A stretch of 64,000 bases of DNA from Tubulanus polymorphus (lineage: Eukaryota; Animalia; Nemertea), in contig NC_134025.1 of assembly GCF_964204645.1 (NCBI RefSeq), forward strand, positions 14,446,001 through 14,510,000. The letters run 5' to 3'. The position numbers and the translations under genes are program-made. The notes beneath the pieces are model-generated. The model ran no database searches, was not told the origin of the DNA, and was given only the letters and a program-made list of their open reading frames with translations. Below, piece by piece: positions 5,930-38,959 of the stretch (the stretch's first letter is position 1; the number at the start of each line of letters is the position of its first letter).

Positions 5930-5958
5930 TCAAATTTTGATAAAAATATGTATTATAA

Positions 5959-6363
5959 ATGGAGAGTAAACAAGCGCACAGTGAGAACAACAAATCATTT
6001 CTAGATAGAATAAAAGATACTACAAATGTAAAATCTGTAGATTATAAATTCAAAAAGTTAACAGAATTAACAATCCATAAGAAATATTTAATTACAAATA
6101 TTGATACAGTTACTAATAACTATAGAGATAAATTAGTTATACACTTAGAATATGAAGGATTAAAAGGAAATACATATAAATTCAGAACATATTTACCAGA
6201 TAGATTTCATAGATTATCAAGTGATGATCTAGAAGAATTATGTTCTGGTGATTTCTATTTCGTATACAAAGGTAAGAATGAAAAAGGGCACCATGAAATA
6301 GATTTCGAAAAGAAAATATGTAAAATAAATGGCGGAATTAAAAGAATACAGAATATTTGTTGA
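5959..6363 (+). CDS. Small conserved Polinton protein, possibly OB-fold ssDNA-binding (3' end frameshifted relative to copy 2)
   Basis: FKKLTEL...YLPDRF...FVYKGK pattern; homologues at 31075 and 22844. Function inferred from position next to pPolB. Confidence 0.55.
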   Translation: MESKQAHSENNKSFLDRIKDTTNVKSVDYKFKKLTELTIHKKYLITNIDTVTNNYRDKLVIHLEYEGLKGNTYKFRTYLPDRFHRLSSDDLEELCSGDFYFVYKGKNEKGHHEIDFEKKICKINGGIKRIQNIC

Positions 6364-8243: not shown

Positions 8244-8263
8244 TTTTTTTCACTATATAAATG
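8242..8263 (+). promoter_or_regulatory. Poxvirus-late-like promoter motif AATTTTTTT-N6/7-TAAATG (first of seven consecutive copies; others before 8603, 8849, 9291, 9742, 11140, 12624)
   Basis: Same T-run, 6-7 nt spacer and TAAATG at each start codon; conserved in divergent copy 3. Confidence 0.65.
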
Positions 8264-8602
8264 AATATAACTGTTGGACCGAGTATATGTTTTGGGTTTG
8301 ATTTTAAACATGGTAAAGAAATGAGAATTAAACTAAATGATGTAATTACTGATATAAAAAGTAAATCACTTAACAATGCATCAATGATTAATAAAGAAAA
8401 TTATAATATAGAAAAAGTAATTGATTTAATTAAATCACCTTTAGAATATTATGAATTAAATGAAGATGGAATTATTGATGATATTAAAAACATATTAACC
8501 AAAATATATGATAATCATAAAAGTAGTAATGAAATAAATGTTGAAATAATCATAAATAAGTTAACTAAATATTTTGATGATAGTAATTTTTTTGATAAAT
8601 AA
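8261..8602 (+). CDS. Polinton hypothetical protein (113 aa)
   Basis: Intact ORF with promoter motif; decayed homologue at ~48785-49140 (-). Confidence 0.7.
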   Translation: MNITVGPSICFGFDFKHGKEMRIKLNDVITDIKSKSLNNASMINKENYNIEKVIDLIKSPLEYYELNEDGIIDDIKNILTKIYDNHKSSNEINVEIIINKLTKYFDDSNFFDK

Positions 8603-8824
8603 ATGAGTGATAATAAGTGGATAATAACTGGATTATATAATGGAGCATTACTATCAGTTGGAACTGTTGGTTATTCAATGGTATTAAAAAAAGTATTTAA
8701 AATGGGAAGTGTTAATGTTGATAGATTTGATATAAATGATATTTCAAAATTAACATTAGCAGTTACTTTATCTAATTTAACTATTGATTATTTGGAAAAA
8801 CAAAAATATATTCCTCCCATATAA
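8603..8824 (+). CDS. Small hydrophobic (putative membrane) protein, 73 aa
   Basis: Two hydrophobic/amphipathic segments; homologue at ~48563-48783 (-). Confidence 0.72.
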   Translation: MSDNKWIITGLYNGALLSVGTVGYSMVLKKVFKMGSVNVDRFDINDISKLTLAVTLSNLTIDYLEKQKYIPPI

Positions 8825-8848
8825 ATGCATAATTTTTTTGCTAAATAA

Positions 8849-9271
8849 ATGGCTTCTGCAATTATAACTATTATAGGATCGGCAATTGTTAACGCTTTAG
8901 CATTTACTGGTGGCGGTTATTTATTTAAGCATATTGATAAAAATAGTTCATTAGGAGAACAAAGAAGACATAACTTAGCATTAGAGAAATACAATAAAGC
9001 AGCAGAAGAATATAGAGAAAAAAGACAAAACTATATGGATTACATCAATAAAGAATTATATGATCAGAAGATTTCACATAGAGATTTTCAATCAGTTGAT
9101 GATGCAATGAGTTTATATAACGCAGTAACAAATAAAGAAAAATTACATCTATACAAACCTAAATTATCAGATTATTATACCCCAAGTAATGAACAACAGA
9201 AATATGAAATAATTTGGATTTTAGGTGGAACAGTTATTGTTATATTTGTGGCGTATAAGTTTACTAATTAG
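8849..9271 (+). CDS. Membrane protein with N-terminal Gly/Ala-rich hydrophobic helix, coiled coil and C-terminal TM, 140 aa
   Basis: MASAIITIIGSAIVNALAFTGGGYLF ... IIWILGGTVIVIFVAY; homologue at ~48117-48536 (-). Confidence 0.75.
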   Translation: MASAIITIIGSAIVNALAFTGGGYLFKHIDKNSSLGEQRRHNLALEKYNKAAEEYREKRQNYMDYINKELYDQKISHRDFQSVDDAMSLYNAVTNKEKLHLYKPKLSDYYTPSNEQQKYEIIWILGGTVIVIFVAYKFTN

Positions 9272-9290
9272 TAATTTTTTTGCTAAATAA

Positions 9291-9725
9291 ATGGAAGATA
9301 AAGTTGATAATATTGATATTATTCCTCATGATATAAATAAAACTAAATTAAAAACATATTTAGAAAAACAAATATTAGAATTTGAAAGTGACTTAAAAGT
9401 TAAAAAGAAAAAATATTTAAAAAGTAAAATTATATATTATCTTATTATCAGTGGTTCGGTTACAATTAGTTCTGTAATAACATTTCTAGCAATATTCAGT
9501 CCATAAAAACCTTTAGCTATATCAATTGGTGTATTAGGATTAAGTTCAAGTGTTTTAACTGGTATAAGTTCAAAATTAAATATAAAAAGTAATAAAGAAA
9601 AAATTAAAACTAATATAAAAGAAATTAATAAATTGAAGAAAACACTAGATTATATAATAAGTTTAAATGGTCATATAACAGTTGAAGAACAAGATAAATT
9701 ATTAAAAGAATTAATAAATTATTAA
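9291..9725 (+). pseudogene. Two-TM membrane protein with flanking coiled coils (premature stop at 9504-9506)
   Basis: TM1 IIYYLIISGSVTISSVITFLAIF; reading continues in frame after the stop as PLAISIGVLGLSSSVLTGIS. Copy 3 homologue has TTA at this codon. Confidence 0.65.
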
Positions 9726-9741
9726 TTTTTTAATTAAATAA

Positions 9742-11123
9742 ATGGTAGATAGTTTTCCAAAAGCTTTCCAATATAATAAATCAATTAAATATAATATTCC
9801 AGCAATAGATTTTAATAAAAATATTACATATAGAAATGAAGTTTTAGATTCATTAACTAATTTAGAAATTTATGTTACTGAAACTAATAATTTTAATGCA
9901 AAGATGGAAAATATATTTCATGTATATTTAATTAATTTTAAAAAATTGAAAGATGAAAAACAATGGTTATTAAAATCTAATATGAAGTATTGGCAGAACC
10001 AATTAAATTTTGCTGTTTATTGTGCAACAACAGGTTGTGGAATTAGTTGGAATGATCATTTGAATAATTCTAAATATAAATTAATTCAAAGGTTATTTAG
10101 ATTTCATACATACTTTCAAATCAGAATAATATTAAATGAATTAGAGTGCGCTTTACCAGGATCTAGGTATTTTAAAGAATTAGATAATAATATTAATTTA
10201 TCAAAGTTTTATAAAATTTGTAATGAATTAAATATAGATATAAATAATTCTGATTTTAGAACAAAAATTGGAACAATAAGATCACTTCCTTGCCCTAAAA
10301 AGATTGCAGAATATTGTGCACTTCCCATACCATCTAATAGTTTGTATAATATCTATAGTAATAAATTAGGTTATGGTAAAATAGAAACTAAGGATTTAGA
10401 AACATTAAATTTCAATAAATTACCGACATTTTATGATAATTTAAAACAAGAAAACAATAATGGTTGGGTTTATTTCATTTTAGAAAATAATGAAGGTTTT
10501 ACAAAATCAGGTATACAAAGAATAGATCAATCTATTAGAACTTATTTGATATGTATTTTAGGTGCGCAAGTTGAAACAAGATCCCCAATAATTGGAAATT
10601 GAAATACATCATTTGATACACAGAAACAATTCAAAGTATTATTTGAAGATTCAATTCATAATGATAAAAATAGATCGATTCCAGAAAACATTGTAAGATA
10701 TCAAAATTATTTAGATAAATCACATATTAGATTAAATTATTGTATAGGCCCTAATCTATTAATTATTTCTAATGATTTAGTACTAAAGATGGGAAATATA
10801 ATTGGTTATAATAATCTAATTAAAACTGCAACAATAAATAATTCATTTGGATTGAATGATATAAATAAAAAGATAATTAATGCTCCAAAATTAATGGAAG
10901 GTGAAAAAAATAAAAAACATATTCAATCAACAGAAACTAAAACTAAGAATATTAAATTAAATAATGATTCTAAAATAAAAGGTTACAATACATCAGAAGA
11001 TATAAAAACTGATAATATTCAACATGAAATAATTAAACTAAATGATGATAATAAATCCCATGAAAATTAGCTATAACTTGTATAGGAATTGTAATCGGAG
11101 GAATATTAAATTTTAAATTTTAA
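9742..11123 (+). pseudogene. Conserved Polinton protein (WQNQLNFAVYCATTGCGIS motif) with C-terminal hydrophobic anchor; nonsense/frameshift lesions
   Basis: ORFs 9742-10602 and 10789-11070 correspond to one gene in copy 2 (32097-33086 plus tail); tail IAITCIGIVIGGI. Confidence 0.7.
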
Positions 11124-11139
11124 TTTTTTTATTATGTAA

Positions 11140-12603
11140 ATGGATGTAGAAGGTGGAGAAGATAATGAAATGGACGGCATGGGAAATAATAATGAAGGAT
11201 ATATTGATGATGATTATAATGATGCAGAAACTAATATTGATAATGATGATGAATCAGCATATAATTCTAATTTAGCAGATAGTGGTTCTAAAGGTCAATC
11301 AACAGATGAATTTGATAGAAGAACTAGATCGAGAATAAATCCTGAAAATGAAAATCAAGGTTTATCGAGACGAGATTTAGAAAATAAAGAATTTATATAT
11401 AAGTTCCAACGTGCATTTGAAAGATCTGTATATAATATAAATTACAGAGGTGCCAGATTTTTAGTAGAAGATTTAAAATATTTAGATGGTGAATATTATT
11501 ATAAATTGAAAGATGATTATTATATTAATATCACTAATCAAAGGACAAGACTAATTAAAATATTAGCAAAATCAACTTTGAGTGATTTAGAACCAGATAA
11601 AATTAAGAGAATAAGTAATAGTAATGAAATAACTGATGTTACACAAGAAGAAAGAGATGATAATATAAGAGTATTTAGTCAAAGAATTGATGACTTATTT
11701 AAAATAATCGATGATAATCCAGAAACAGAAACAACTTCTGAACAGAATAAAACTTCCAAAACTAGTAAACTTAAATCAAATAAAGTTCCAATTGAAAAAC
11801 TTTTACCGAATGGATTAATTGATGCAACAGATCAACAATTAGAAGATTTGAATAATATATTTTCTGATGAAGCAATTAGAGAAATTAAAAGTATAAGACT
11901 TGCATCTGATAAAATTGCGCATGATAAAAGTATAAGAGATTTAAAAATTAGAACTTTAGAAGATGAATTATTTAAATCAAGAAAAGAATCGGAACCACTA
12001 AAATTAGATAGAGATAATAAAGTTATTGAAGAAATCGAATTTAAAAAAAGAAATGCGTATTTAGAAAAAGAAAAAGATGATTTAGTATATAACATAGAAT
12101 TATAAAAAGAAGAAATTAAATTGTTATTTAAATCATATGATTATAATATTAATAGATTAAAAGTTATTTTTAAAGATTTGTTGATAAAACCAGATTCTAA
12201 AATATCATTGAAGGATAGAATAAAATTATTATTAAAGTTAGAAGGAATAACAATTCTTTCAATTCTAACAGCTGTAACTATGTTATTTACAACAATTGGT
12301 TTAGCAATATCAAATGCTTTGAAATCTACTCCTACTCCCAATAAACCGGATAAACCCCCGAATGATAATAATTCTATACAAGATAAAGTTAAAGATGGTT
12401 TAAAGAAATTAGCAAAATATTTATGGGAACTATCTAAAAAATCTGCTGCAGCATTGCCAGGAGTTATTGCATCAATTGTTGGTTTTATATTGAAATCTGC
12501 AGGAAACATTATTAACTTTGCTGCTGAAAATATTATTTTATTTTTAATTACAGTTGTAAGTGCAATTATTTTTGGGTTAGTAAACATGATAAAAAATAAA
12601 TAA
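11140..12603 (+). pseudogene. Acidic N-terminus / long coiled-coil protein with C-terminal hydrophobic helices (in-frame stop at 12103-12105)
   Basis: ORFs 11140-12105 and 12121-12603 are in the same frame and are contiguous in copy 2 (33432-34742). Confidence 0.72.
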
Positions 12604-12623
12604 TTAATTTTTTTGTTAAATAA

Positions 12624-13871
12624 ATGAGTGGGAGTTATATCAATCCTTCTAAGAATCATAGAATATCTAATGCTATTAAAGCAGAAAGATCACATCATAT
12701 AATTACTCATAACCCTTCTAATATTAATCCCGATGAAACTTTATATGTTAGAATTCCTCGATTAACACAAAATACTTTTTATGTTCCATATAGTATTTAT
12801 TTATCAGCCGATATAAAAGTAATCGGTAATAATAATAATTATGTTGTTGATAATGTTGGAAGATATTTGATTAAAAAATTAACAATAAAGATTGGTCCAG
12901 AAACAGTTTTCTCATCAGAAGATTATAATTTATTTATGCATTATAAAGATTTATGGTTAACTAAAGAAAATAGAAATAATATGATATTTCAAGGAATCAA
13001 ATCAGAAAACAAAAATAAATTAAGATCAGAAGCACATAATGCAATATTAACTAATTCTGTAGATAAATTGATAAAAAGTATATATGGAAGCAAATATAAA
13101 ATTCCATTAGACTTTGAATTGATAAATAACAATGCACCTTTATATAAATACGCAATTCAAGAAGATGTTATATTCGAAATAACATTTGCTCCTGTAAATG
13201 AAATTGTATTATCTAGCGTTAATAAAGATATGAGTTATAAATTATCGAATATATGTTTAGAATATGATACAGTAACTGATGAAAATATTGCAAGTATAAT
13301 TCAAACTCAATACAATCAAGGATTTTCATTATTATATGATTATATTGATAAATTTAAAACTGTAACTATTAATGCAAATGATGAAATTATCAATGAGAAT
13401 ATTAACTTCCCAAGAAGATCTATTAAAGGTATATTAATATTTTTTACCATTGCAACATATACTTATGGCGCAATAAATGTTGATAATTATTATAATCCTG
13501 AAATAACAAAAGTAGAAATAACTATCGAAGGAATAGCAAATAAAATATTTTGTCAAGGAATGAGAATGATTGATCAATGGCCAGAAATTAGAAAACATTT
13601 TATGAATGAAAAAGTGAAATCATCTGAAAATTGTAACATTAATCAAATTGATTATTATACCGGTAATAAATATGCATTATGGTTAGATTTTAGAACAACA
13701 GAGGATAATTCATTACATGGTTCTGGAAAAAAATTACAAAACACTAAAGATGGAATACAATTATTCATGACAAAGAATAAAGGAATCAAAAATTTTTAAA
13801 TGCACATTTATATTATATCTGACGCGCAATTAAATATTGTAAATTCTCAATTAAATAGTGTTATGTATTAA
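12624..13871 (+). CDS. Major capsid protein (double jelly-roll type), frameshift near the C-terminus
   Basis: ~415-aa beta-rich ORF conserved in all three copies (ITHNPSNINPDETLYVRIP, NICLEYD, INENINFPRRSIKGIL, ALWLDFR); position and size fit a Polinton MCP. Confidence 0.8.
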
Positions 13872-13903
13872 AATTTTAACTTTAATAAAAATTTATATAA
13901 TAA

Positions 13904-14788
13904 ATGGAAGGAGGTAAAGTATATAAACATATTCCATACATCGATACACATGAAAATAATGATGGTTTATATTATGTAATACCTTGTAATATAGCTTTGA
14001 TATTTGATCCTATTTTCAAAATTTATAAAACTAAACTAATAGAAATCGATAATAATAAAAGTGAAGTTGTTGATAATTTAAGTAATGTAATACCTTCTAC
14101 ATCTAATAATGTAATACCTTCTACATCTAATAATGTAATACCTACTACATCTAATAATGTAATACCTACTACATCTAATAATGTAATACCTTCTACATCT
14201 AATAATGTAATACCTTCTACATCTAATAATGTAATACCTTCTACATCTAATAATGAAATAATATTAAATGTTAGTGAAAATAGAAATTATTGTGGATATT
14301 GTAAAAGTGAATTTTCAAACGCTACATCAAATTGGAATAAACATATGAATACAAGGGTACATATAAATAATGTTATAGAACGTGTTGGTTTAAAAGAATT
14401 TATAGAACACCCATTTAGATATGTTACAAAGTTTGTTTCAAATCAAAAAGTAAATGGTGAAAAAATATATGAAGATTTATTATTAGCAACACCTAATAAA
14501 GATGAATTAGATCTAACCGATGCTAATGAAATATTAGGATCAAACACTGTAAATGAAATATTAGGAGCAAACACTAATAAAGATTCTATGAAACATAAAG
14601 TAGAAAATAATGATAAATTTGATTGGATGAATAAGCATAACAATGAAACAACTATTGATGATGCGGTAAAAAAGGTGAAGAATAAGTATAAAAATAATAG
14701 AGAATTTGAAGAAGAAAATTCGGTAGAGAATTTAAATAAATTGTTAGGGTCTGATAGTGAATTGGAGAGTGATGATAAAAGTGATTAA
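13904..14788 (+). CDS. Zinc-finger protein with VIPSTSNN repeats and acidic tail
   Basis: CGYC...HMNTRVH C2H2/U1-like finger; seven 8-aa repeats. Confidence 0.7.
   Translation: MEGGKVYKHIPYIDTHENNDGLYYVIPCNIALIFDPIFKIYKTKLIEIDNNKSEVVDNLSNVIPSTSNNVIPSTSNNVIPTTSNNVIPTTSNNVIPSTSNNVIPSTSNNVIPSTSNNEIILNVSENRNYCGYCKSEFSNATSNWNKHMNTRVHINNVIERVGLKEFIEHPFRYVTKFVSNQKVNGEKIYEDLLLATPNKDELDLTDANEILGSNTVNEILGANTNKDSMKHKVENNDKFDWMNKHNNETTIDDAVKKVKNKYKNNREFEEENSVENLNKLLGSDSELESDDKSD
14087..14254 (+). repeat. 24-bp coding minisatellite x7 (GTAATACCTWCTACATCTAATAAT)
   Basis: Directly visible; x5 in copy 2 (36241-36360). Confidence 0.95.
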
Positions 14789-15187
14789 GATATCAATTAT
14801 ATTTAACACAAATAATAATATTAGTTGAAAATTGTATAAAATAATAGTAAATAAAAAAGGGGGTTTTAAGTATTTAAGGCATCTAATAGGGTATCTAATA
14901 AATATCTAATACATATCTAATACATATTATTTGAAAATACCTTAAATTATATTTCTTTTTTAAATTTATATTGAAACCTCAGTAATTATAAATAACCTTT
15001 ATTATTTTCAAACTTATTCATATATTAGTTGAAAAAATAAAAATAAATTGGTTGAAAATTGTATAAATAATATTTATTTTAAAAAAGGGGGTTTTAAGTA
15101 TTTAAGGTATCTAATAGGTTATCAGGTATTAGGGTATCTAATGGGGTATCAGGTATTAGGGTATCTAATACATAGGTATACAAATAG

Positions 15188-15758
15188 TTATTTTATAAAT
15201 TTATATTCATAGGGAAATTGTAATCTCAGTAATAATTTTGAACCTTTATTATTCTTTAATTTATTCATATATTCATCATGTAATTCAGTAGGTATAATTT
15301 GATTTTCTTCCAATGATTGTTGCATAGATTTTTTATCTTTGTTATAAAATAAAACTAGAAATCTTATATTCTCCCTAAAGTCTTTAACAATTGAATTATA
15401 TTTTTGATTTAAAACCCATGTTGTTATCCCAAAATGTCTTCCAGAGAAAGCTAAATAACATAACTCACTTTCTCTCACTTTTGAGTCATGTAAATTAGCG
15501 CAATCATCTACAATGAATAATGTATTTGATCCTTTATAAGTATCAATTGCTATTTTAATACAATTATCTAAATTTCGTTTTACTATTTTAGGATCTAATA
15601 TAATTCATTTCATAAGTAGGACAAAATAATATTATATTATCAAAATGATTCTTATAAATAGTTTCTAACAAATCTAATATGAAATGTGTTTTACCACAAT
15701 TGGTTACACCAGTAACTAACATATTATGCGGTTCGAATATAAATAAATCTTTATTCAT
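15188..15758 (-). pseudogene. A32-like (FtsK-HerA) packaging ATPase with internal deletion
   Basis: Walker A GVTNCGKT, Walker B FIVDD, GRH motif; intact in copy 2. Confidence 0.88.
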
Positions 15759-16802
15759 TTATTCTTTTAATTTTACTAGATAAAATCCATTCATTAAATT
15801 TATCATCATATCCTTTATATTTCACCAAAGAATACTTTTTTCCTTTAAGAGTTTTTGTTTTCAATACTTTTTCTATTTTGTATTTCATCTGGATTTGGTA
15901 CAAGTGATAATTCTTGTTCATAGAAATAACCTAATATTTCTTCATCTTTTAAATCTTCTAGTTTATATACAAATGGTTTAGTTAATATTATCTTTTTAAT
16001 CTTGAATATTTCTTCAGTAAAATTTGGAGTATAACCTTTATAAAATGTTTTTCTATATTTAGATATTCTAACGTGTTGTCCTATTTTAAATTTAGGTTCG
16101 CCGAAATCATGTGTAACAAATGCTCCATATAAATTATTCCAAACTATTTCCGAATTATCTTCTTTTCTAGCTTGTATAGGTTTCATATTTATAGAACTAT
16201 GTTTAGAATTATTATAACCTTTCACTAAATCATCTAACACATCGATATATTTATATGTTTCATTAGCAGTAAAATATTTCCACATTCTAGTTTTCAATGT
16301 TTTATTAAATCTTTCTATTATAGATGCTTTTTCATCTGAGTGTGTTGAAAAATAGTCTACATCGTTATCAGATAATAGTTTTTTAAAATGTTTGTTATAA
16401 AATTCCTTACCTTCATCAAATTGTATCTTATCTGGAATAGCTTCTTTAAATATTGATTTAAAAGCATTTGTCACTTCTGTATCGACTGAATATGTCTATA
16501 ACATTCAGTATCCAGAAATATCCTTTGTTGTATTCCTCTAAGTTCTTCATGTCAATTAAATCTGCTTGCCATTGTTGATCGATATATGAAACCATAACTT
16601 TTCTTATTAAATAAGTTTTATCCATTTTCTTGTGGATTTGATATGTTGGTTGATTTTGTAACCATGATTTCAATTCACTATATTTTACATTGCCATTTTC
16701 CTTATCAGATTTAATTTTACCCCATAATTCTGTAACGTTAGAATATGATACTTCACTTTCTGGGTTATAATATAAATCTCTTAAATATTGTTCTTTTTTC
16801 AT
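15751..16802 (-). pseudogene. Retroviral-like (rve) integrase with C-terminal chromodomain, frameshifted
   Basis: QWQADLID, IQFDEGKEF, IERFNKTLK (DDE); C-terminus KIEKVLK...LVKYKGYDDKFNEWI. Confidence 0.9.
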
Positions 16803-16808
16803 CTTATT

Positions 16809-17133
16809 TTAATCCATTAATAATAATTTAGATTTAGTTTCAATGGCTTTATGATTTGATTTATTTTCTGGTATAATAGGTTTATTGTCATTGGAATCAT
16901 CTTTATCATCATATTTGAATTTTGAATGTAATATATAATTTATAATTAATTCCAGCATTGGAAGAATCAGATGGATTATTACTTGAATCAATATCAGATA
17001 AAGTCTGTGATTCATTTATATTAGTTAATTCCTTTTTCTTAGCTTTTTTTAATTCTGAAGATCTTTTACCTAATTCTCTTGCCCATTTAATTTGTTTCTC
17101 GGATCTAGCCTTTTTCTTAACTCCATCACTCAT
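16809..17133 (-). pseudogene. Small basic protein (TM segment deleted relative to copy 2)
   Basis: MSDGVKKKARSEKQIKWARELGK; copy 2 version (39038-39328) has TM YITIGLVTVIILSGVIY. Confidence 0.6.
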
Positions 17134-17728
17134 TTATTTTAGTTAATTTTTGTTCTGATTCATTTTCTGTTTCGCTGTTTGGTTGTAGTACATCTGTTTC
17201 GTTCTTACCTGATTTATATTCCATAGGCTTGATATTCGAAAATGTTATGACGCCAGTAGAAATTAATGTCATAACAGATCCTAATTGAAATGAAGCATAA
17301 CCAACCCATTTTTGTAATTCAGTCATAACTAAGTAGTCATTTTTCAAATCACTATATAATTTATTTTCATCATCAATTGGTATTAACTGGTTACATAACT
17401 TAGAATAACATTTGACAATACCATCTGAAATAGAATCATTTATTCGGGCTAATCTTGCCTCTTCATAAATCTTAAAATATTTTATTACTTTATCCGGTTT
17501 CATAGAGTCTAGTTCTTGAAAAGTAATGGTCTTAGTTAAAAATTGTTTAGATTTGCCGCCAGCAATTAGTAACTCAAGATGGTGTTTACAATATAAATAG
17601 TATTCATAATCAATATTGTTATTAACTTGAATAGAATTAGAAACAACTGGATCCTTATTATCACTTATACCTAAATCATCTAATGTTTTTTCAATATCAA
17701 TACTATTCTTATTAGATTTCTTTGACAT
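17126..17728 (-). CDS. Polinton hypothetical protein (200 aa) with a hydrophobic segment
   Basis: Intact ORF with TAAATG start; disrupted homologue at 39321-39922. Confidence 0.7.
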   Translation of the reverse strand: MSKKSNKNSIDIEKTLDDLGISDNKDPVVSNSIQVNNNIDYEYYLYCKHHLELLIAGGKSKQFLTKTITFQELDSMKPDKVIKYFKIYEEARLARINDSISDGIVKCYSKLCNQLIPIDDENKLYSDLKNDYLVMTELQKWVGYASFQLGSVMTLISTGVITFSNIKPMEYKSGKNETDVLQPNSETENESEQKLTKINE

Positions 17729-18030
17729 TTATATTAGAGAAATTTAATAAGAAAAATATTATAAGTATTATAAAATGATACTAGATAGTTAAAGTTAAAG
17801 AATTCTAGTATTGACTACTGATACTAGCTATTTGAATTTAAAGAATTTCTATTTGAATCTATTCAAAATATAAAGTATTCTCTTTTTGAAAAGAAAATAT
17901 TAAAAATATAATAGAATTCACTTGCTAGTTGAAGTTATTGTTTTTTTAATATATTTTATTTGAATTCTATTTGATATCTCACTACTTTTGTTTATCTATT
18001 AGGAGCAGTAATCATAACTGTCCAGATAAG

Positions 18031-18711
18031 TCATTTCGGATCCTTGATATCAAATTCCTCAACGTATTGTTCATTATTTGGATCATTGTTCCATTGATCA
18101 ATAAATTTCTTTGCCTTTGTTAACTGTTCTGAATATAACTGTAAATCTAGTTTATTAGATTTAATTATGTTTTCCTTCTTTTCTAAAGGTCTTAAATTTT
18201 TCCAGTTCCATATTAGCTTCTTATTATAATCATCACTCATGTCAAATTTAGAAATCGGCAACACATAATCAATATGAAAGTATTCACCATAATTATCTAT
18301 ATTCATTTTATCATCGAATTGATATATTATCCATGATTTAAGAAATTTATCTGAACAACCCAATAAATTAGATAGTGTTTCTGAATGTGTTTCTTTGTTG
18401 AATAATTGTGTTAATCTAGATCTTAAGCATTGTTTCAATCTAAAATTAAGATCTGTTTGATATCTTTCTCTCATATATTCTGTCATATAATCATTATAAG
18501 CTTCTCTATTATCTTCTCGATATTGTTTGGTATATAGTTTAAAACAAGTTTTACAACAATATTGAAAACCATCTTTGCTAATCTTACGCTTATTAAATTC
18601 TGTTATAGCTAATTTATCTAATTCACATTTAGAACACTTCTTGTAGTATATATTTATAACACCACCAGTGTTATTTGTAATATTGATAATTTGTGGTTGT
18701 TCTGGTTCCAT
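18031..18711 (-). CDS. HNH endonuclease of the type common in large DNA viruses (first His changed to Tyr in this copy)
   Basis: CSKC...CKTC zinc ribbon; HID(Y)VLP...NWKNLRPLEKKENIIKSNK. Confidence 0.8.
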   Translation of the reverse strand: MEPEQPQIINITNNTGGVINIYYKKCSKCELDKLAITEFNKRKISKDGFQYCCKTCFKLYTKQYREDNREAYNDYMTEYMRERYQTDLNFRLKQCLRSRLTQLFNKETHSETLSNLLGCSDKFLKSWIIYQFDDKMNIDNYGEYFHIDYVLPISKFDMSDDYNKKLIWNWKNLRPLEKKENIIKSNKLDLQLYSEQLTKAKKFIDQWNNDPNNEQYVEEFDIKDPK

Positions 18712-18854
18712 TTATTATATGTATTTTTTACTAAATTGGTTAATATTTTAGAATCCTCTTCCATTTCTTCGACCAACGTCGTCCTTTTTCATTCCTCGTT
18801 GCTTTTGATAAGTTGTTTCGATTCCTTGATATTTAAATAATACCACTGGGAAAA

Positions 18855-19300
18855 AGCGCGCATTCATGCGCGCTTTTGCTTAATGCGCATGCGCTAATCA
18901 TAATTATATATTCATTATGTAAATTCTGTAAAATAGGAACAACCGAACACAGAAAATATCAAAACGTGTTCGCATTAAGCAAAACCGCGCATTCGTGGGC
19001 GCTTTTGATCAATGAGCATGCGCTAATCATAATTATATATAATTATGTAAATAGAAACAACCGACATGAAATATCTAAACTTGTTCGCATTAGGCAAACC
19101 GCGCATTCATGCGCGCTTTTGCTTAATGCGCATGCGTTAATCATAATTATATATTCATTATGTAAATTCTGTAAAATAGAAACAACCGACATGAAATATC
19201 TAAATCATACCACTGAGCAAACCGCGCATTCGTGCGCGCTTTTGATCAATGCGCATGCGCTAATCCTAATTATATATTCATTCTGAATAGAAACGACCGA
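18855..19300. repeat. Four ~114-129-bp tandem units with GCGC-rich cores (TGCGCATGCG)
   Basis: Units start near 18857, 18986, 19100 and 19223; absent from copy 2. Confidence 0.9.
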
Positions 19301-20019
19301 ACATAAAAATTCACCAATCAGATTTACACAATACATTATACAAGTTGTTCGGCCATTTCTTCCAATACATCATTTGATTTCTATAAATACAATTAATAAT
19401 TACAAACATTTTTTCAATTGCTGGTAAATATTTAACTACATCAACAAATGTTAAACTTAATCATTGGAGTCTTAATGTTTTTGAAATTCTTATATAGTTT
19501 CTTCGTCGATCTTTTGGCGATTCTTGTGTTTCTTGTGCTAATTTCTATTGGTTCGATATCCATTGCTGTTGATTCCTCAGTCAGAAAGAGTATCTTGAGT
19601 TTCTCTATCACTTCTTGATGCGTATGGCGTTTTATTAATCTAAAAGATATTAGCGGCAACTCTAGCCATCTAAAATATATACTAAATACACTTAAATATA
19701 TCTAAAGGTTTCATATTTAATAGCCCTAATAACTACAAAAAACAGTACTTACATTTAGATTTAGAATTGTAAACTATAAACTCCTAATTTCGTTTCGAGA
19801 GATAGAATATCCTGAGCGTAATGTTACAGCGCCTGTTCATTTCTTGCCACGTCATCTGGTTCCGGTTCTAGAGTGTTCTACACGTTTGCAATATTATGAC
19901 TCATATGTCTCGGCGTCATAGTAACAGCTGTAACAGCTGTGAATTTTAGATTTATTCAATAGTTCATTACATGAAATGTATATAGGCTCAAATAAAATCA
20001 TGTTCTAGTTTAAACAGCT

Positions 20020-20581
20020 ATGCATTATTTCAATCACACTTAACTAACACTTTTAATGTTTAAAAATCTAACTCACACAAATATGAATATTGAAATAATG
20101 TTGTAAATATATACTTTTATATTGAATAATCTGTCAATTTAAATGTTATTCATTTATATGATTATTTTAAGAGTAATAGGGGTAATGGGCTTTCAGGTTA
20201 AAGGTTGAACGGTCGAGCTCATTAAAAACAAAACATTAAAAGTAATTTAAAACTATAATATATTTTCATAACCGTGTGTATTTCAGTTGAATAATAGAAT
20301 AATTATCATTATTAAAATATATTTGATTATATGAATTTGTGTATTGTAAATAAATCAATTGGTCGCGGAGCGGAGCGGCAGCGAAGTGGAGCGACCAATT
20401 GATTTAATACAATATGCTTTTAAAATTAAAATTATTAATATCTTAGAATAAATATTTAGTTATAATATAAAATACACACGGTTATGAAAATATATTATAG
20501 TTTTAAATTACTTTTAATGTTTTGTTTTTAATGAGCTCGACCGTTCGACCTTTGATTTGAAAGCCCATTACCCCTATTACT
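20020..20581. repeat. Right terminal inverted repeat of copy 1, including ~410-bp fold-back hairpin (20172-20581)
   Basis: Matches 42400-42960 directly and 26580-26960 inverted; arms 20172-20283 and 20470-20581 are reverse complements with 4 mismatches. Confidence 0.92.
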
Positions 20582-21757
20582 GATGTTACCTCACAACGAC
20601 CTTGTACATATATTGAAACCGGACGGCAAGCCTTCTCATTCTACTGATGTTGCCAATTTGAATCATGTACGAAAAGCCTTCTAATGGCTTCAGATTCATA
20701 ATCATCTTTGTGAAAAAATTACTATCGCATCTAATTGTCATTCATTGCCATCGAATATGTCTGTAAACATTGATGGATTTCTCCATTATAGTTCTATTTC
20801 CACCAATCGCACTATCCCACAAAATTTAACTGCCGCGTCTATCAAAACCGACAGATATTGAAACATCCCCTTTGGAGAGGGAATGGCTTTCCCATGGCTA
20901 TTCCCAGATGGTAAATATGGTATATCCACATTACCTAGTCAACCGCTTATTGAAGTACTACCACCAGCGATTATACAATATTGACCCCCGCGTCACAACA
21001 TTTCCTACATTTTCAATGCGGTCAGTACTTCTGAAAAATCTCTTCTTTTTAACACAGTTAGTGTTTATGCACAGATGAAGCCAGAACAACCTACTGATTA
21101 CAATAATGATAATAATTTTCCATGCCCTGAGATGAGTAATACATACATGTTCACAAAAACTATTTGAGGAACAGCAGCCTATTTCAGAAATTCACTATAC
21201 AATCTACTAGCGATGATGAAATGCCTAGGCCCACCAACATTGCTTGTAACCTCGTCTGCTAATGATCACCATTGGCCTGAGCTATATGATTTCATTATAG
21301 CTAACCTTAGTAACATGGAAAATGATATTTCCCACATAAAAGATCTTTCAGCCAAATCTGGTTCGGCAAAACCCTCTCATAACAGCTTTACACTTTGAAC
21401 GACGTTGGAAAGCTTTACTCAACCACATTTTGAAAGGACCACTGAAACCTCTGGGAGACATAGCTGATTATTTTGCGCACACTGAATTTCAGCTGGGGTG
21501 TCTAGTCATCTTCATATATTCTTCTGGTTAAAGAATCCGCCGAATTTTCAAACTGATCCTTATGAAGACATCGTCTCTCTTATCAATTCTATTATATCAA
21601 CTCAAATACCATCTGACTGATATTGAACTTCAGAATTTAGTAACATCGTTACAAAAGCACTCACATTCACATAACTGCAATAAACGGGGTAAACAATGCA
21701 GGTATGGATTCCCACAACGATTGTGTCTTCAAACAAAACTCATATCACATGTTGACC

Positions 21758-21805
<48 letters not shown>

Positions 21806-22760
21806 GTCTTTATTTCGTACAAAAAGTACAGACTATAAGAGGAAAGATAAGAATACAAAAATACAAAAATTCACATGAAGAACATTTTTACAGACTGAAT
21901 AATTAAAGGACATAGATTCAAATATAAATGTAGGCTACATGACTTAATAGATACAGTAATAATTGATTAGGTCTTTTATCTCATTTTGGCTGAATAGAAA
22001 GTTAGGGGATGGATAGAACAGTACATAAACTAAGTCAAAAATATGCTGGGCTGCTTCAATATATTCAACAGTGGATGGTGAGAACTGAATATCAGGAATA
22101 CTGGTTTGGAATAGAAATCTGTTAAATTTGTATCTATTAGAAATATGATTTAAACTGCTACTGAGAGGCGAATTACTACCATAAAAAGCAAGGTTGCCAC
22201 AAAAACTTAATACTGGGTTATCGGAGTTAATAGATGATTGAAGAAATTTCCAAAATCTACGATGCAATTTAACTTCAATGGTTTCATCATTACACAAAAG
22301 AGGAAGAATGTCATTATGGGTTCGAGGATGTAAGTTGAACATTTTTCTAATACATTGTCTTGCTGCACAAAATAGTTTATGAGAAGTAACATCAGAAAAG
22401 TCAATACGTACCGACCCGTATAGGGATGAGCAGTAAGTACGAAAAATAAAGTATCTGATATGGGGATCGATATCAGAAATGCATTTACTACTGCTATTAA
22501 ATTTTACATATAAATCATTTACTATATGATCAACATTGATGACACAATTACCATGACTATTAACCGCCAACAAATGGCCTAGAATCTTGTAATAAATTAT
22601 CTTTTATGAAACCGCTAGCAATAGAGGGATGGATGAATGCCATTTTGCGTTTATGGCAAGCTAACATGGACATACAGATAATAGGCAATAACGCCCTTAC
22701 TTGTGCAAATCAGAAACCCAGGAATTGCAAACAGCACTCTCCCAATGTTATTCAAGAGCT
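20582..22760 (+). pseudogene. Degenerate Helitron/Helentron Rep-helicase fragment (Rep region), interrupted by a LINE
   Basis: GTAAYFRNSLYNLLAMMKCLGPPTL...WPEL; DYFAHTEFQ...HLHIFFW (HUH motif); QKHSHSHNC...CRYGFP; LWQANMDIQ. Confidence 0.82.
21758..22573 (-). mobile_element. 5'-truncated non-LTR retrotransposon (RT C-terminal region) with (TTA)n tail
   Basis: ORF 21944-22573 (FRTYCSSLYG...IRKMFNLHPRTHN); AATAAA followed by a ~46-bp (TTA)n tail at 21758-21804. Confidence 0.8.
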
Positions 22761-22843: not shown

Positions 22844-23164
22844 ATGGCTGAGAGAAAAGTTTCCTAGCGTCAAAAAATAATAAAATAGAACCAGCAAAAA
22901 ACCGAAGTAAGAAAGTTAGTCGATGTTACAAAAGAAATTGAACGTAAAATATTAAAACTAGAAAAGATAAAAACTAAATGCGGAGAAAAAATATCAGCAA
23001 ATTTGAGTTACTGTATTGTTAGTACAACGCGAGAATTTAAAGTATTTTTACCTGATGAATGGGTTTCATTGAGTAAAGAGGAATTAAAAGATTTAGAAGG
23101 ATTTAGAATAATTTATCATGGAAAAAATGAAGACGGTCATCATGATTTGGAAATTGTTGAATAA
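22844..23164 (+). pseudogene. Divergent homologue of the Polinton 117/134-aa protein (fragment of a fourth related element)
   Basis: Translates as ...FKVFLPDEWVSLSKEELKDLEGFRIIYHGKNEDGHHDLEIVE*, versus FRTYLPDRFHRLSSEDLEELCSGDFYFVYKGKNEKGHHEIDFE in copy 2; frameshift near the start. Confidence 0.72.
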
Positions 23165-23403
23165 ATAAAAAATAAGATAATTAAGAAAATAAAATGATAA
23201 AAATAATAAAATCAATTAAATATCAAGAATCCGAAATGACTTATCTGGACAATTTAATTGCTCCTCATAGATAGACATAAGTAGTGAGATATTTAATTGA
23301 TTCAAAATAGAAATTTTGTTTAATGAATTAAATCTATTTTTTGCTTTTTTTCTAAAATATTAATCCATTTTTTTATAGTGAACTTTGGAATTTCCGAAGT
23401 TTT

Positions 23404-26579: not shown

Positions 26580-26989
26580 TTGGTCGCTCCACTTCGCTAC
26601 CGCTCCGCTCCGCGACCAATTGATTTATTTACAATACACAAATTCATATAATCAAATATATTTTAATAATAATTATTATTCTATTATTCAACTGAAATAC
26701 ACACGGTTATGAAAATATATTATAGTTTTAAATTACTTTTAATATTTGTTTTTAATGAACTCGACCGTTCAACCTTTAACCTGAAAGCCCATTACCCCTA
26801 TTACTCTTAAAATAATCATATACATGAATAACATTTAAATTGACAGATTATTCAATATAAAAGTATATATTTACAACATTATTTCAATATTTATATTTGT
26901 ATGAGTTAGATTTTTAAACATTAAAAGTGTAAGTAAAGTGTGATTGAAATAATACATGATATAAATCATTGAACTTCTAAAATCAATTT
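26580..26989. repeat. Left TIR of copy 2 (outer hairpin arm missing)
   Basis: Reverse complement of ~42378-42775; begins at TTGGTCGCTCCACTTCGC. Confidence 0.9.
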
Positions 26990-27011
26990 TAATAAGAAAT
27001 TTAGTATTAAA

Positions 27012-30000
27012 ATGGAAGCAAATAAGTACTACTGCCCAACATGTAATATCAATATAGATAGATCCCAAAAAGCAAGACACAATAAAACTAAAGCGCATTT
27101 AGAGAATAAATTGAAACTAGAATATAAAGATGATATATTAGAAACTAAATTAGATGAATTAAAGAATGAAAAAGAAACATACAAATGTGATACATGTAAT
27201 CAATCATTCAGTGATAAAAGATATTATAATGAACATTTAAAATCTAAAAGTCATATTAGAAATAAGAATAATGATATCTTAGGTGAGGATTATTTTGATG
27301 AAGATAATGATAAGAAACAGAAGACAATTAAAAGCATAACAAATAAATTAAACAATAAAAGACCATACATGGAAGATGTAAGAAATTATATTAATTCATT
27401 AGATAATAAAAAAGATATAGAGATAACCGAAGCATTTAAAAGTGATATTGGTCCAGCAGCTATCGAGTTTAAATTTCATAAAGGTAAAACATTAGAAGAA
27501 AATAAAAAACATTTAGAAAATATGAAAGAAATAATAAAAATAATAACTGATGTTGAATATCCTAAAATTAGTATATCAGTTAAAGTAAAGTTTATAAAAT
27601 CTGAAGATAAACCAATATATAATATAAATTCTCATTCACAACATATTATATATAAACAACATATAGATGATAAATTAGATAAATGTTATAATGAAGTAAA
27701 AACTAAAATAGAAGAGAAATATTTTGAAGGATCTGGTTTAATATTTGATGAAATAATATTTATGACTTTACATGTTTATAACACAAAATATAATAAGTTA
27801 ACTAAATCAAAACCAATTGATGAAAATAATGTATCATATTATAAAGAACGAGATATTGAAGCATCGAGTTATATTAAACTACCATTTAAAACTAATGCTG
27901 TTATAAATGTACAAAATGAAGATGATAAATGTTTTCTATGGGCTATAATAAGTTGTTTACATCCTGCAACTTATAATATTTGTAGATTAACTCATTATAA
28001 ACCATTTGAAAATAATTATAAGATAGATAAGTATCCTGTTATAATTAAAAACATCCCAAAAATAGAAAGAGATAATAATATAAAGATAAATGTATTTGAT
28101 TTAATCAAATTACCAAATACAAAAGGTAACAATATAAAACATTATACATTAGAACCTTTATATCTATCAAAAGATTATGATTCAAACGATGTTATAGATA
28201 TACTATATTATGAGAATCATTATATGTGGATTAAACAAATCGACTTATTTTTTAAATCAGAAAATGATCACCATAAAATATATCTTTGTAGAAAATGTTT
28301 ACATAAATTCAGTAATGAAAGTACATTATTAAATCATAAACAATTATGTGAAAATCATGATTATTGTAAATTAGTTTTACCAAATGAAAAGGATAAAATA
28401 TTAGAATTCAAAAAATATGATTACAAAAATAAAGTACCATTTGTAATATATGGAGATTTTGAATCATTAAATAAAGAACTAACTGATCAAGATAGAAAAG
28501 AAATATATTATAAGAGAAAGAAATTAAATTCTAATGAAAATGATTATTCTGAAGAACCACCAAAAACAAATACTATTAAAAAGATTCATCAATCAGCTGC
28601 TGCTTTCGGGTTATATATAAAATCTGATTATCCAGAACTAATTGAAAGTGAATATTCTGATTATAGAAATGAAAATGTTATCAATCATTTTTGTGACTTA
28701 TTAATTGAATATGAAATAAGATTTAGTAAATTACTGAATACAAATATAGAATATAGAAATTATAATGACAGAAGAAGATAAAGAAGCATTTGCGTTTGCA
28801 GATAAATGTTATTATTGTGAAAAGATATTTAATTATAAAGATAAAAAAGTAAGAGACCATGATAATTTGAACGGAAAGTTTAGAGGCGCTGCACATGAGA
28901 ATTGTAACTTACAAGCTAAGAAAATTAATTTTGTACCAGTTATATTTCATAATCTATCAGGATATGATGCACATTTATTCATCAAACAGTTATGCCATAA
29001 AATAGAAGAAATTAATAATGAAATAGAAAGATTAAATTCAAATAGATCAAAAGATAAAATACCAACTTATAAATTTAGAATGTTAGCTAAAACATCTGAG
29101 AATTATATATCATTCCAATTTGGGTGTTTAAGATTTATAGATTCATATAGATTTTTAAATAGTTCATTAGATAACTTATCAAAATCATTAGTTGATGATG
29201 AATTGAAAATATTAAAACAACACTACCCAAATAATGATGATTTCCAATTAATGAGATATAAAGGAGCAATTCCATATTCTTTCTATAAAAATCATAATGA
29301 TTTCAATATAACTGAATTATTAAAAGAACAATTCTATGATGAATTAAAAAATGAATATGTTAGAGATGAAGTATATAATAGAACATTGAATATTTGGAAT
29401 CATTTCAAAATAGAAAATCATGGGCAATTAGTAGATTTATATCTAAAATCTGATGTATTATTATTAACTGATATATTCGAAAGGTTTAGAGATGTAAACC
29501 TAAAATATTTCAATATTGATCCTTGTCATTGTTATTCAGGTTTAACATGGGATTGTGGATTAAAATTTACAGATATAAAAATGGATTTGTTAACAAATAT
29601 AGATCAATTACTATTATTTGAAAAATCTATAAGAGGAGGAGTTTCAGGTGTATTAGGGGATAGATATTTCAATGTAAATGATAACCCTGGATATAAGTTA
29701 TTATATATAGATGCAAATAATTTGTATGGTTGGGCAATGATGGAACCACAACCTTATGGAGTATTTGAATTAACTGAAGTTTTACAGAATGAAAATAATG
29801 ATAAATTTGATTGGAAGAAAAGAATTCTAGATATAGCAGATGATTCAGATACTGGTTACTTCTTTGTTGTAGGTTTAGAATATCCTGAATATAAAAAATT
29901 TAAATCTAGAAATCTAGCTTACTGTCCCGAACATAAAACTGTAACACATGAAGAATTATCAAATTATCAAAAAAGAATTAAACCCGGAAATCATATTCAT

Positions 30001-31045
30001 ACAGAAAAGTTAATGGTAACTCTAGAAGATAAATATAATTATGTAGTACATTACAGAATGTTAAAGTTTTATTTGAATCAAGGAATGATTATAAAAAAAG
30101 TACATAGATATATTTCATTTAGTCAATCTAAATGGTTAGGAGAAATATATAGATTTTGACACCAAACAGAGAACTGAAGCTAAAACTGATTTCGAGAAAG
30201 ATTTCTTCAAGTTAATGAATAATGCATTCTATAGTAAGACTTGTGAAAATATTAGAAATAGAAATGATATTGAGTTAGTTAGTAATGGTAAAAGGATAAG
30301 GCATTTACAATCATATCCTAAGTTCATTGGTAACAGAATATTTGATGAAAATTTAGCTGCAGTTAAGATGAGAAGAACATCAATGAAATTTAATAAACCA
30401 ATCTATGTTGGCGCTTCAGTTTTAGAATTATCAAAATTACTGATGTATGAATTCTATTATAATGTATTACAATCACTTTTTGGAGAAAAACATATAGAAA
30501 TACTATATTTTGATACTGACAGTTACATATTAAAGATAAAAACTGATAACATAACAGATGATTTAAAAACATTAAAACATCATTTTGATTTTAGTAACTA
30601 TCCTAAAGATCATGAATTGTTTAGCAATAATAATAAAAAAGTTCCAGGGAAGTTTAAGGATGAATTAGGCGGTGAAGAAATGATAGAGTTCATAGGTATT
30701 AGATCTAAAATGTATTCATATAAAACTAAAGAACATGAAGCTAAAAAGTTAAAAGGAATAACCAAAAGTGTAGTAGAAAAGAATATTCATTTCAAAGATT
30801 ACATCAATTGTATATTCAATGAAGAAGTTAGAAAACATAAGATGAGATGTTTAAGATCTGAAGATCGTGAAATGTTTATTGAAGAAATTGAAAAGATAAG
30901 TCTAAACCCATTTGATGATAAAAGATATATTTTAGATGATGGAATTCATACAGTTGCTTATGGTTGTAGTTTAGATGAATACTTAAAATTTAAAAGAGAA
31001 GAAACAAAAGAGAACGAGATAATGAAAAGAATTCTAACGTGTTAA
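27012..31045 (+). pseudogene. Full-length pPolB (~1340 codons) with two frameshifts: N-terminal zinc fingers, terminal-protein region, vOTU-like domain, exonuclease with endonuclease-VII-like insert, polymerase
   Basis: ORFs 27012-28781, 28765-30159 and 30215-31045; 7-bp duplication AATATAG near 28750 and +1 near 30140; all PolB motifs present (motif B G>S). Confidence 0.94.
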
Positions 31046-31074
31046 TCAAATTTTAATAAAAATATGTTATTAAA

Positions 31075-31428
31075 ATGGAGAGTAAACAAGCGCACAGTGA
31101 GAACCACAAATTATTTCTAGATAGAATTAAAGATATCACAAATGTAAAATCTGTAGATTATAAATTCAAAAAGTTAACAGAATTAACAATTCATAAGAAA
31201 TATCTAATTACAAATATTGATACAGTTACTAATAACTATGGAGATAAATTAGTTATACACTTAGAATATGAAGGATTAAAAGGAAATACATATAAATTCA
31301 GAACATATTTACCAGATAGATTTCATAGATTATCAAGTGAAGATTTAGAAGAATTATGTTCTGGAGATTTCTATTTCGTATACAAAGGTAAGAATGAAAA
31401 AGGGCACCATGAAATAGATTTCGAATAA
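31075..31428 (+). CDS. Small conserved Polinton protein, possibly OB-fold ssDNA-binding (117 aa)
   Basis: Intact orthologue of 5959-6363. Confidence 0.6.
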   Translation: MESKQAHSENHKLFLDRIKDITNVKSVDYKFKKLTELTIHKKYLITNIDTVTNNYGDKLVIHLEYEGLKGNTYKFRTYLPDRFHRLSSEDLEELCSGDFYFVYKGKNEKGHHEIDFE

Positions 31429-31445
31429 GAAAATATGTAAAATAA

Positions 31446-31985
31446 ATGGCGGAATTAAAAGAATACAGAATATTTGTTGATTCAAGAAAACTTACTAATT
31501 ATAAATCTCATAATTTACTAGTTCAATTAGATAGAGAATTTAAGAATTGTGTAGATTTAAAATTAGTTAATATAAGTTTATGTAATTCTTTTTATAACAT
31601 ATCAGATAAAACTTTTGAACATAGAGGGTTTATGATTTATATGAGAAATAAAGATAAATGGTTTCATATATTTTTAAAACCAGGATTATATAATTTAGAA
31701 TCATTAGCGCAGGAAATTAATAGAAGAGCTCGGTTGAAAATCGGGGGCACTTCTGTATTTGAAATTAAATTTAATAAAATTGATAGTACTTATAAAAAAA
31801 GAATAAAGATATCTAATGAACAACATAAATTTATGGTAAACAAACCACTGGCTAAAATGTTAGGAATTAAACCTCTTACAGTTACTGGAAACGCAGAAGG
31901 CAGCTCAAATATAATACCTTTTACACACTTTTATATTTATTGAAATTTAATCGAGCCTACAAAAACTTTCGAAGCAACTAAAAAA
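31446..31985 (+). pseudogene. Minor capsid protein, nonsense mutation and 3' deletion
   Basis: Orthologue of 6329; TGC>TGA at 31941, then deletion junction near 31985. Confidence 0.72.
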
Positions 31986-33276
31986 AAGCTTTCCAATATA
32001 ATAAATCAATCAAATATAATATTCCTGCAATAGATTTTAAAAAAAATATTACAAATAAAAATGTAGTTTTAAATTCATTAACTAATTTAGAAATTTATGT
32101 TACTGAATCACAGTTTTTTTATTTCTAAAATGGAAAATATATTTAATACATATGAAGTTACTTTTACTCGAGATGAATATCATATATATAAAGTAAAATC
32201 TAATATGAAATATTGGCAGAACCAATTAGATTTTGCTGTTTATTGTGCAACAACAGGATGTGGAATAAGTTGGAATGATCATTTAAATAACTTAGATAAA
32301 AATTTGAAGTATTCTGATTTAAAATTAATTCACACAATATTTAGATTTCACACATATTTTCAAATCAGAATAATATTAAATGAATTAGAATGTCCTTTAC
32401 CCGGGTCTAAATATTTTAAAGAATTGGATAATAATATTAATCCATCTAAGTTTTATAAAATATGTAATGAATTTAATATAAATATTAATTCCGATTTTAG
32501 AGCGCATGGTAAATTGCAAGGTGTTGGTGAAGAGTATGAAATAAAAAGAATTGATTATATGCATAGAATTTCAGCTTATCATAATTATAAAATTGATAAT
32601 AATAATGGTTGGGTTAATTTCATTTTAGAAAATGGTGAAGGTTTTACTAAAGCTGGAATACAAAGAATAAATCAATCTATTAGAACTTATTTGATATGTA
32701 TTTTAGGTGCGCAAGTTGAAACAAGATCCCCAATAATTGGAAATGATAACACTTCATTCGATGCGCAGAAACAGTTTAATGTATTATTTGAAGATTCCAT
32801 TCATAATGATAAAAATAGATCGATTCCAGAAAACATTGTAAGATATCAAAATTATTTAGATAAATCACATATTAGATTAAATTATTGTATAGGCCCTAAT
32901 CTATTTATTATTTCTAATGATTTAGTATTAAAGATGGGAAATATAATTGGTTATAATAATCTAATTAAAACTGCAACAATAAATAATTCATTTGGATTGA
33001 ATGATATAAATAAAAAGATTATTACTGCTCCAAAATTAATGGAAGGCGAAAAAAATAACAAAACATATTCAATCAACAGAAACTAAAACTAAGAATATTA
33101 AATTAAATAATGATTCTAAAATAAAAGATTACAATACATCAGAAAATATAAAAACTGATAATATTCAACATGATATAATTAAACTAAATGATGATAATAA
33201 ATCCCATGAAAATACTAATATAGCTTTAACTTGTATAGGAATTGTAATCGGAGGAATATCATATTTTAAATTTTAA
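31986..33276 (+). pseudogene. WQNQL/CATTGCG-motif protein (5' start deleted, frameshifts)
   Basis: ORF 32097-33086 is homologous to 9742-11070. Confidence 0.7.
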
Positions 33277-33292
33277 TATTTTTATTATGTAA

Positions 33293-34742: not shown

Positions 34743-34763
34743 TTAATTTTATTTGTTAAATAA

Positions 34764-36010: not shown

Positions 36011-36042
36011 AATTTTAACTTTAATAAAAATTTATATAATAA

Positions 36043-38952: not shown

Positions 38953-38959
38953 CTTATTT

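Follow-up and report, generated by a model that had tools for sequence, protein, structure and literature searches.

A family-wide terminal fold-back in a Maverick/Polinton element and its proposed role in replication

The 64-kb stretch of DNA analysed here (the window) is eukaryotic and carries microsatellites, a hAT transposase gene, decayed repeats and three copies of a Maverick element. Copy A (2485–20581, plus strand) has no left end and adjoins the hAT transposase gene (ORF 227–1876, within 1–2484), the apparent end of which abuts the copy; the left terminal inverted repeat (TIR) of copy A and the left portion of its polymerase gene are missing at this junction. Copy B (26580–42960, plus strand) is 16,381 bp long, and several of its genes are broken. 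Copy C (43366–53406) is inverted (minus strand), is 70–91% identical to A and B and has no terminus in the window. None of the three retains both outer ends. The copies lie within 52 kb with gaps of about 6 kb and 0.4 kb between them, forming either a local cluster or an insertion hotspot. Small Maverick-like fragments are also present between A and B, at 22889–23306, including a 91-aa frame resembling the ORF that follows the polymerase gene and an inverted 90-bp piece matching 17959–18056.

In copy B, the structural and integration genes encode a double-jelly-roll major capsid protein (34764–35909, plus strand), an A32-like packaging ATPase (37276–37887, minus strand; Pox_A32, E = 5e-12) and a retroviral-type integrase core (38183–38794, minus strand; rve, E = 2e-9). 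The capsid protein is shorter than its relatives, which include a bivalve protein at 40%, and its model matches vaccinia D13 and the PBCV-1 capsid protein in Foldseek (E = 4e-7). The bivalve relative suggests that the host is an animal and probably a marine invertebrate. The same set of genes, with a pPolB polymerase carrying a terminal-protein (TP) domain and a vOTU domain, and with TIRs, is found in Mavericks, Polintons and "adintoviruses"; the TIR of about 610 bp and its 5′-AG end are also of the Maverick/Polinton type. The family is thus a Maverick/Polinton, as defined by pPolB, the rve integrase, the A32 ATPase, the double-jelly-roll capsid and long AG-ended TIRs. An adenain-like protease is a usual Maverick core gene; none was detected in the three decayed copies by Pfam or by tblastn with the proteases of two relatives (best E = 0.87). 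No HUH/Rep initiator nuclease was present among the 39 ORFs scanned, and an HNH/EndoVII domain was.

The pPolB gene of copy B (27012–31045, plus strand) is split into three ORF pieces, and the gene is fragmented in all three copies (DNA_pol_B_2, E = 3e-10). The pieces comprise zinc fingers, a predicted terminal-protein domain (approximately 27417–27782), vOTU, exonuclease and palm. The HNH/EndoVII insertion sits in the exonuclease, and in copy A the Endonuclease_7 domain exceeds the Pfam cut-off. The model of the in-frame N-terminal piece (pLDDT 72) has a beta-alpha-beta-beta-alpha-beta order, and Gly-Ser-Gly precedes the final strand. Of the 46 fold matches listed for the TP-type domain, every one is a Y-family polymerase, one of them an isolated little-finger domain, the best E-value (4e-3) lying above 0.001. 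In the available text of PMC11071308, such features are taken to mark the terminal protein of Polintons. Both vOTU residues, Cys and His, are the same in 10/10 aligned sequences. Since pPolB keeps both the predicted TP domain and these residues, protein priming is probably retained by this family. HNH insertions are known in the pPolB2 of nematodes and oomycetes, in a preprint the accessible part of which does not mention hairpins (10.1101/2023.08.22.554363); the insertion is, by itself, no pointer to hairpin resolution.

The right TIR of copy A is composed of an inner, non-palindromic part (20020–20171) and an outer part (20172–20581), which is an imperfect palindrome of 410 bp. All segments are given on the plus strand, which is the strand ending 3′ at the terminus. 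The inner arm (20172–20283) begins with an outward-facing AGT end and is followed by an inner AT-rich zone (20284–20350), the stem and tip (20351–20406), an outer AT-rich zone (20407–20469) and the outer arm (20470–20581), the last base of which is the element–host junction. The arms are 112 bp long with 4 mismatches; the arm alignment confirms these values, which had been proposed by the sequence-only reading. The same reading described a perfect 15-bp stem; the pairing is indeed perfect, but extends one pair further, to 16 bp (20351–20366/20391–20406). The AT-rich zones, of about 65 nt on each side of the stem, pair poorly; the inner one is nevertheless conserved between the copies. The tip is purine-rich and 24 nt long. 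Folded as DNA, the palindrome reaches −141.3 kcal/mol (z = −27.8), and none of 100 shuffled sequences folded as well. In the predicted fold, the partner of the element's last base is the first base of the inner arm; the 3′ end lies flush, and the element body is available as template. The inner AGT had been described as a second, internal end. It is present, but since it faces away from the element body it cannot be an alternative terminus of that body and could mark the left end of the 410-bp unit alone.

The same structure, likewise noticed from the sequence alone, forms the right end of copy B (42555–42960, plus strand), where the arms contain 9 mismatches, 3 of them common to copy A, and a 1-nt bulge. 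This copy has a 5-nt deletion in the tip, which is not among the 12 family indels listed from the reads. The inner part of its right TIR occupies 42350–42554 (plus strand). A truncated third fold-back, which the earlier reading did not contain, was found in the left TIR of copy B (26580–27017, minus strand): the tip and inner arm are kept (26580–26805), the outer arm is lost and the sequence ends 8–9 bp beyond the tip. The two TIRs of copy B (26580–27017 and 42350–42776) are 93% identical. The AG terminus occurs at both 20581 and 42960, and the terminal 18-mer is found five times in the 64-kb window, against 0.01 occurrences expected.

Four read runs were compared with 19701–20900, and the figures below are from a single raw-read run (X7), of which about 12% was read; it bears the same species label and stems from another study. 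The mean depth was 4.7 on the host flank, 420 on the element body, 720 on the inner TIR and 1263 on the hairpin middle. From these depths, the element may number in the region of a hundred copies, provided that the host flank is single-copy. The right flank of copy A (20582–21906) yields translated pieces resembling what we take to be a decayed Helitron Rep gene, so the copy-number estimate is rough. At 20581, 1422 reads leave the element into unlike flanks (agreement 0.34); the outer AGT is thus the terminus of many insertions, and the fold-back lies at the element end, as had been claimed. Short reads and contigs from an independent source span the passage from flank to arm and the tip. Independent reads of the hairpin middle (depth about 1260) and the arm-specific differences between copies bear out the view that the structure is a family feature.

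The suggestion that the 410-bp unit is a solo miniature element (MITE) does not agree with these data. No target duplication surrounds either of the two complete units, which have the same left flank and different right flanks. The TIR bases adjoining the hairpin middle have depths of 1367–1492, giving a ratio of 0.85–0.92; the middle being no deeper than its surroundings, solo units are not abundant, while a small minority would fit. Solo units or flop ends are expected to pile loose reads at 20172, and no such pile occurs among the six listed for this run, the smallest of 266 reads. If the listed piles are the largest, the upper bound for flop or solo ends is about 16%. The tip has one orientation in 3/3 window copies, two of them from one element. 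Of the flip and flop forms envisaged earlier, then, a single one is seen in the window and no second one among the read rows listed, which is a weak bound. Reads also part from the reference in large piles at 19727, 19775, 20137, 20217 and 20525; these point to subfamilies that either have a shorter inner TIR or share just the last 46–57 bp. Those at 20217 and 20525 may hint at a sister subfamily whose arms co-vary separately, which was not counted as evidence.

The mismatches between the arms are distributed in a strongly one-sided manner. Each mismatch position being counted once over the three window copies, 11/11 distinct positions are G.T on the 3′-ending strand, with no A.C or transversion mismatch among them. 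The partner arm of the left TIR of copy B was borrowed from the other copies; when this TIR is left out, the count is 10/10. For comparison, copies A and B were examined over 4279 columns of the element body and their substitutions polarised by C; this control gave 50 C>T/A>G, 51 G>A/T>C and 118 transversions. The class making G.T pairs accounts for 50/219 substitutions (23%) in the body and for 1/11 in the TIR parts outside the arms. At the body rate, the chance of 11/11 is 0.228^11, or about 9e-8, a figure that is overstated, the copies being related and the positions not fully independent. As the body counts are 50 and 51, there is no strand bias of mutation there, and strand-biased mutation as the source of the G.T excess is unsupported.

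Variation in the reads has the same direction. Among the arm variants listed, 7/8 yield G.T or restore G-C, and six of these seven positions coincide with the 11 mismatch positions of the window. The eighth produces T.T; it borders a run of T that is one T longer in 852 reads. The 3′-ending strand also folds better than its complement, at −141.3 versus −133.7 kcal/mol in copy A and −123.9 versus −108.9 kcal/mol in copy B. To judge from these sequence features, the fold is likely restricted to the strand ending 3′ at the terminus, and this strand-specificity is new here. Alternatively, the G.T bias could come from biased repair or deamination in a strand that folds but serves no purpose.

The tip shows a comparable asymmetry. 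Across it, all the non-Watson–Crick oppositions on the 3′-ending strand are purine–purine except one G.T; on the other strand they are pyrimidine–pyrimidine and A.C. Past the stem, the 3′-ending strand presents G.A, G.G and A.G, then G.T and C-G, then G.A, G.A and A.G, then two G-C pairs and a loop closed by G.A. The loops are GGTA and GGCA. Motifs of the form GCG(N1-2)AGC occur ten times in the 64-kb window, and eight of them sit in the three tips, all on the 3′-ending strand; the tip of copy A has three, on the plus strand. Motifs of the GCGAAG type are also found at the ends of other invertebrate transposons, so the motif alone is not diagnostic. GCG(N1-2)AGC is the consensus of very stable DNA mini-hairpins at the ssDNA origins of phages, which resist exonucleases and bind SSB poorly, according to the available sections of PMC13037366. 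Hairpins of Streptomyces telomeres are closed by sheared G.A pairs and, in the portion of PMC4513846 at hand, are likened to parvovirus 3′ ends. By analogy of sequence, the purine–purine pairs of the present tip may well form.

Taken together, there is a real, family-wide terminal fold-back in this Maverick; the sequence argues well for folding of one particular strand, and a role in replication is proposed. Several known systems offer partial parallels. The outer 410 bp of the TIR form a palindrome with a one-strand fold, which sets the family apart from the Mavericks described in the literature searched. That literature yielded neither a long fold-back nor a strand-biased one for an animal Maverick, and no terminal palindrome for Polintons, though Repbase entries may already describe palindromic TIRs; the word "hairpin" is absent from the accessible text of the adintovirus paper and of the nematode Polinton preprint (10.1101/2023.08.22.554363). 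A palindrome inside the TIR at the insertion site, with hairpin priming proposed, is described for Halocafeteria virophages and PLVs in the available part of a 2026 preprint (10.64898/2026.07.28.741278). The earlier statement that long terminal hairpins are foreign to this group was, in view of the passages available from that preprint, too strong. The Halocafeteria palindrome measures 52 nt in the subtype illustrated there, against 410 nt here, and, as far as that text goes, such palindromes occur in a protist host, mostly in elements without pPolB and without evidence of strand bias.

Among more distant systems, the 3′ single-stranded end of Streptomyces telomeres folds on palindromes with sheared G.A pairs and is copied with TP priming; those telomeres differ in having several short palindromes, separate Tap and Tpg proteins and an internal bidirectional origin, and the likeness is one of description (PMC4513846, in part). 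Parvovirus 3′ hairpins and poxvirus telomeres are likewise imperfect terminal palindromes with a flush 3′ end as a possible primer. In contrast to them, no HUH/Rep gene was found in the present element, no flip and flop forms were seen among the copies and read rows listed, and the ends are integrated with an open AG terminus. Casposons are also pPolB elements, and the TIRs of some contain internal palindromes, but they are prokaryotic, use a Cas1 integrase and have short internal palindromes (PMC4046053, available sections).

The reading that we tentatively favour, its chance falling somewhat below even, is that the palindrome on a single-stranded 3′ end acts as a local duplex origin for protein-primed synthesis, on one strand only. 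The 3′-ending strand would become single by displacement in replication or by release from the chromosome, and its last 112 nt would pair with the inner arm. The resulting local duplex end could then serve the terminal protein–polymerase, with no need for a panhandle between the two ends, which lie 16 kb apart. Synthesis starting at the outer AGT would copy through the whole hairpin, so that one orientation is kept, and the purine-paired tip would make the fold more stable and protect it from nucleases or from single-strand binding proteins. We prefer this local-origin reading because of the G.T bias, the read variants, the tip, the fold energies, the TP-type domain and the single orientation. 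The flush-paired 3′ end is also a ready primer, and on this reading protein priming would need to outcompete its direct extension. Neither of the two related viral contigs with both TIRs (L032 and L037, the ends of which may be clipped) has a terminal palindrome, so pPolB elements do not need one.

That same primer is the basis of the main rival, a self-priming scheme, which we regard as somewhat unlikely. Here, as in parvoviruses, DNA synthesis would proceed straight from the folded 3′ end, and the hairpin junction so formed would be nicked by the polymerase's HNH/EndoVII domain. The terminal base flush with the inner arm, the body available as template and the Endonuclease_7 domain above the cut-off in copy A are all in its favour, the strand-bias evidence fits it equally well, and the model is the one proposed for protist virophages and PLVs (10.64898/2026.07.28.741278, accessible part). 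Simple terminal resolution, however, predicts both flip and flop, of which no sign was seen (a weak bound), although a single orientation would also result if the nick fell at the old 3′ end and the 410-nt overhang were then patched by TP. The retained TP domain also argues against self-priming, as do the occurrence of HNH insertions in nematode and oomycete pPolB2 in a paper whose available text is without hairpins (10.1101/2023.08.22.554363) and the fact that the protist palindromes are mainly in elements other than pPolB ones, as far as described in 10.64898/2026.07.28.741278. Hence the part of the sequence-only reading that placed a single-strand fold at the end is likely right, whereas its self-priming is possible and, given the TP domain and the lack of flip and flop, not favoured. 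A hybrid is unlikely in our estimation; in it, the 3′ end would self-prime via the 410-nt fold-back with its purine-zipper tip, the junction would be opened by the polymerase's HNH domain, and patching of the end would fall to the terminal protein. Summed over the readings, a functional single-stranded DNA fold is quite probable. Extrusion of a cruciform from duplex DNA, also suggested before, leaves the G.T and purine–purine pairs on just one strand unexplained.

The remaining explanations deny the fold-back a role as origin or place it elsewhere. It might have no function now and derive from a former snap-back (template switch) or from a nested mini-element, its symmetry maintained by occasional rounds of fold-back and repair that leave G.T pairs. 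The unit is shaped like a mini-element with 112-bp TIRs, its AT-rich zone now pairs poorly, one copy has the 5-nt tip deletion and another has no outer arm; furthermore, hairpin deletion derivatives of protein-primed plasmids exist (kalilo, according to the source text available). Yet there is no target duplication around the unit and no excess of solo units in the depth, the tip deletion is outside the 12 family indels listed, and a plain snap-back would not yield a symmetric purine-paired tip on the very strand that is G.T-biased, which makes a relic distinctly unlikely. We consider quite improbable an end cap or recognition structure on a single-stranded intermediate, for nuclease protection, packaging or integrase loading instead of an origin: the exonuclease resistance and poor SSB binding of mini-hairpins (PMC13037366, in part) and the service of poxvirus hairpin mismatches in virion maturation (PMC8956199, in the text available) are compatible with it, but duplication of 112 bp including the entire terminal sequence is left unexplained. 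An RNA hairpin with G.U pairs, made by an outward-running transcript, would also confine the bias to one strand, a G.U bias being typical of RNA stems. Nevertheless, the GGTA and GGCA loops fit the DNA mini-hairpin consensus and not the GNRA rule of RNA, the fold-back region has no Rfam match (and no phage match), a 112-bp dsRNA would be expected to invite silencing and the arms begin exactly at the DNA terminus; this explanation is highly improbable. Palindromes at repeat ends are a known type of assembly or long-read fold-back artefact. Here that origin is next to impossible: two copies share positions at which their arms differ, and independent reads and contigs, which span flank to arm and the tip, refute it.

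These results touch on the question of how an integrated Maverick, whose ends carry no terminal protein, begins copying. A single-stranded "racket" model exists as a cited suggestion in the literature (10.64898/2026.07.28.741278 among it, in the part available). In the present family, the sequence itself marks which single strand folds and offers a short, defined DNA substrate with clear predictions on orientation, on the chemistry of the ends and on how each strand should respond to probing. It also indicates that terminal palindromes can accompany a TP-bearing pPolB, contrary to the protist trend. If the hybrid scheme were true, parvovirus-type hairpin priming and protein priming would be joined in one element, and the fold-back would be the first sequence evidence for a single-stranded Polinton intermediate.

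Searches for relatives of the fold-back covered metagenomes and viral contigs. The terminal 18-mer was present at 11 metagenomic loci, none of which matched the TIR past 21 bp. The terminal 16-mer and tip motif were found at 82 loci in viral contigs, with one weak AT-rich match and no fold-back of at least 60 bp. A capsid-based search gave no viral loci and one uninformative MAG contig. Relatives of pPolB were found at 29 loci in viral contigs, few of them with ends and two (those named above) with both TIRs. A further contig (L014) contains at 4657–4840 an imperfect palindrome of 184 bp, which lies between the integrase and pPolB genes, upstream of pPolB, and is not AG-ended.

The window also holds other repeats and palindromes. 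In copy A, before the right TIR, the non-coding region 18829–19308 comprises about four tandem GC-richer units of 115–130 bp, each with short GCGCAT-type palindromes, which are unmatched in copy B. About 1.4 kb of copy B (40260–41700) does not align to copy A and includes a 53-bp inverted repeat at 40503–40860. Arrays of a near-palindromic 30-bp unit occur at 54402–54696 and 55486–55627, inside a duplicated block (53786–54976/54981–55961).
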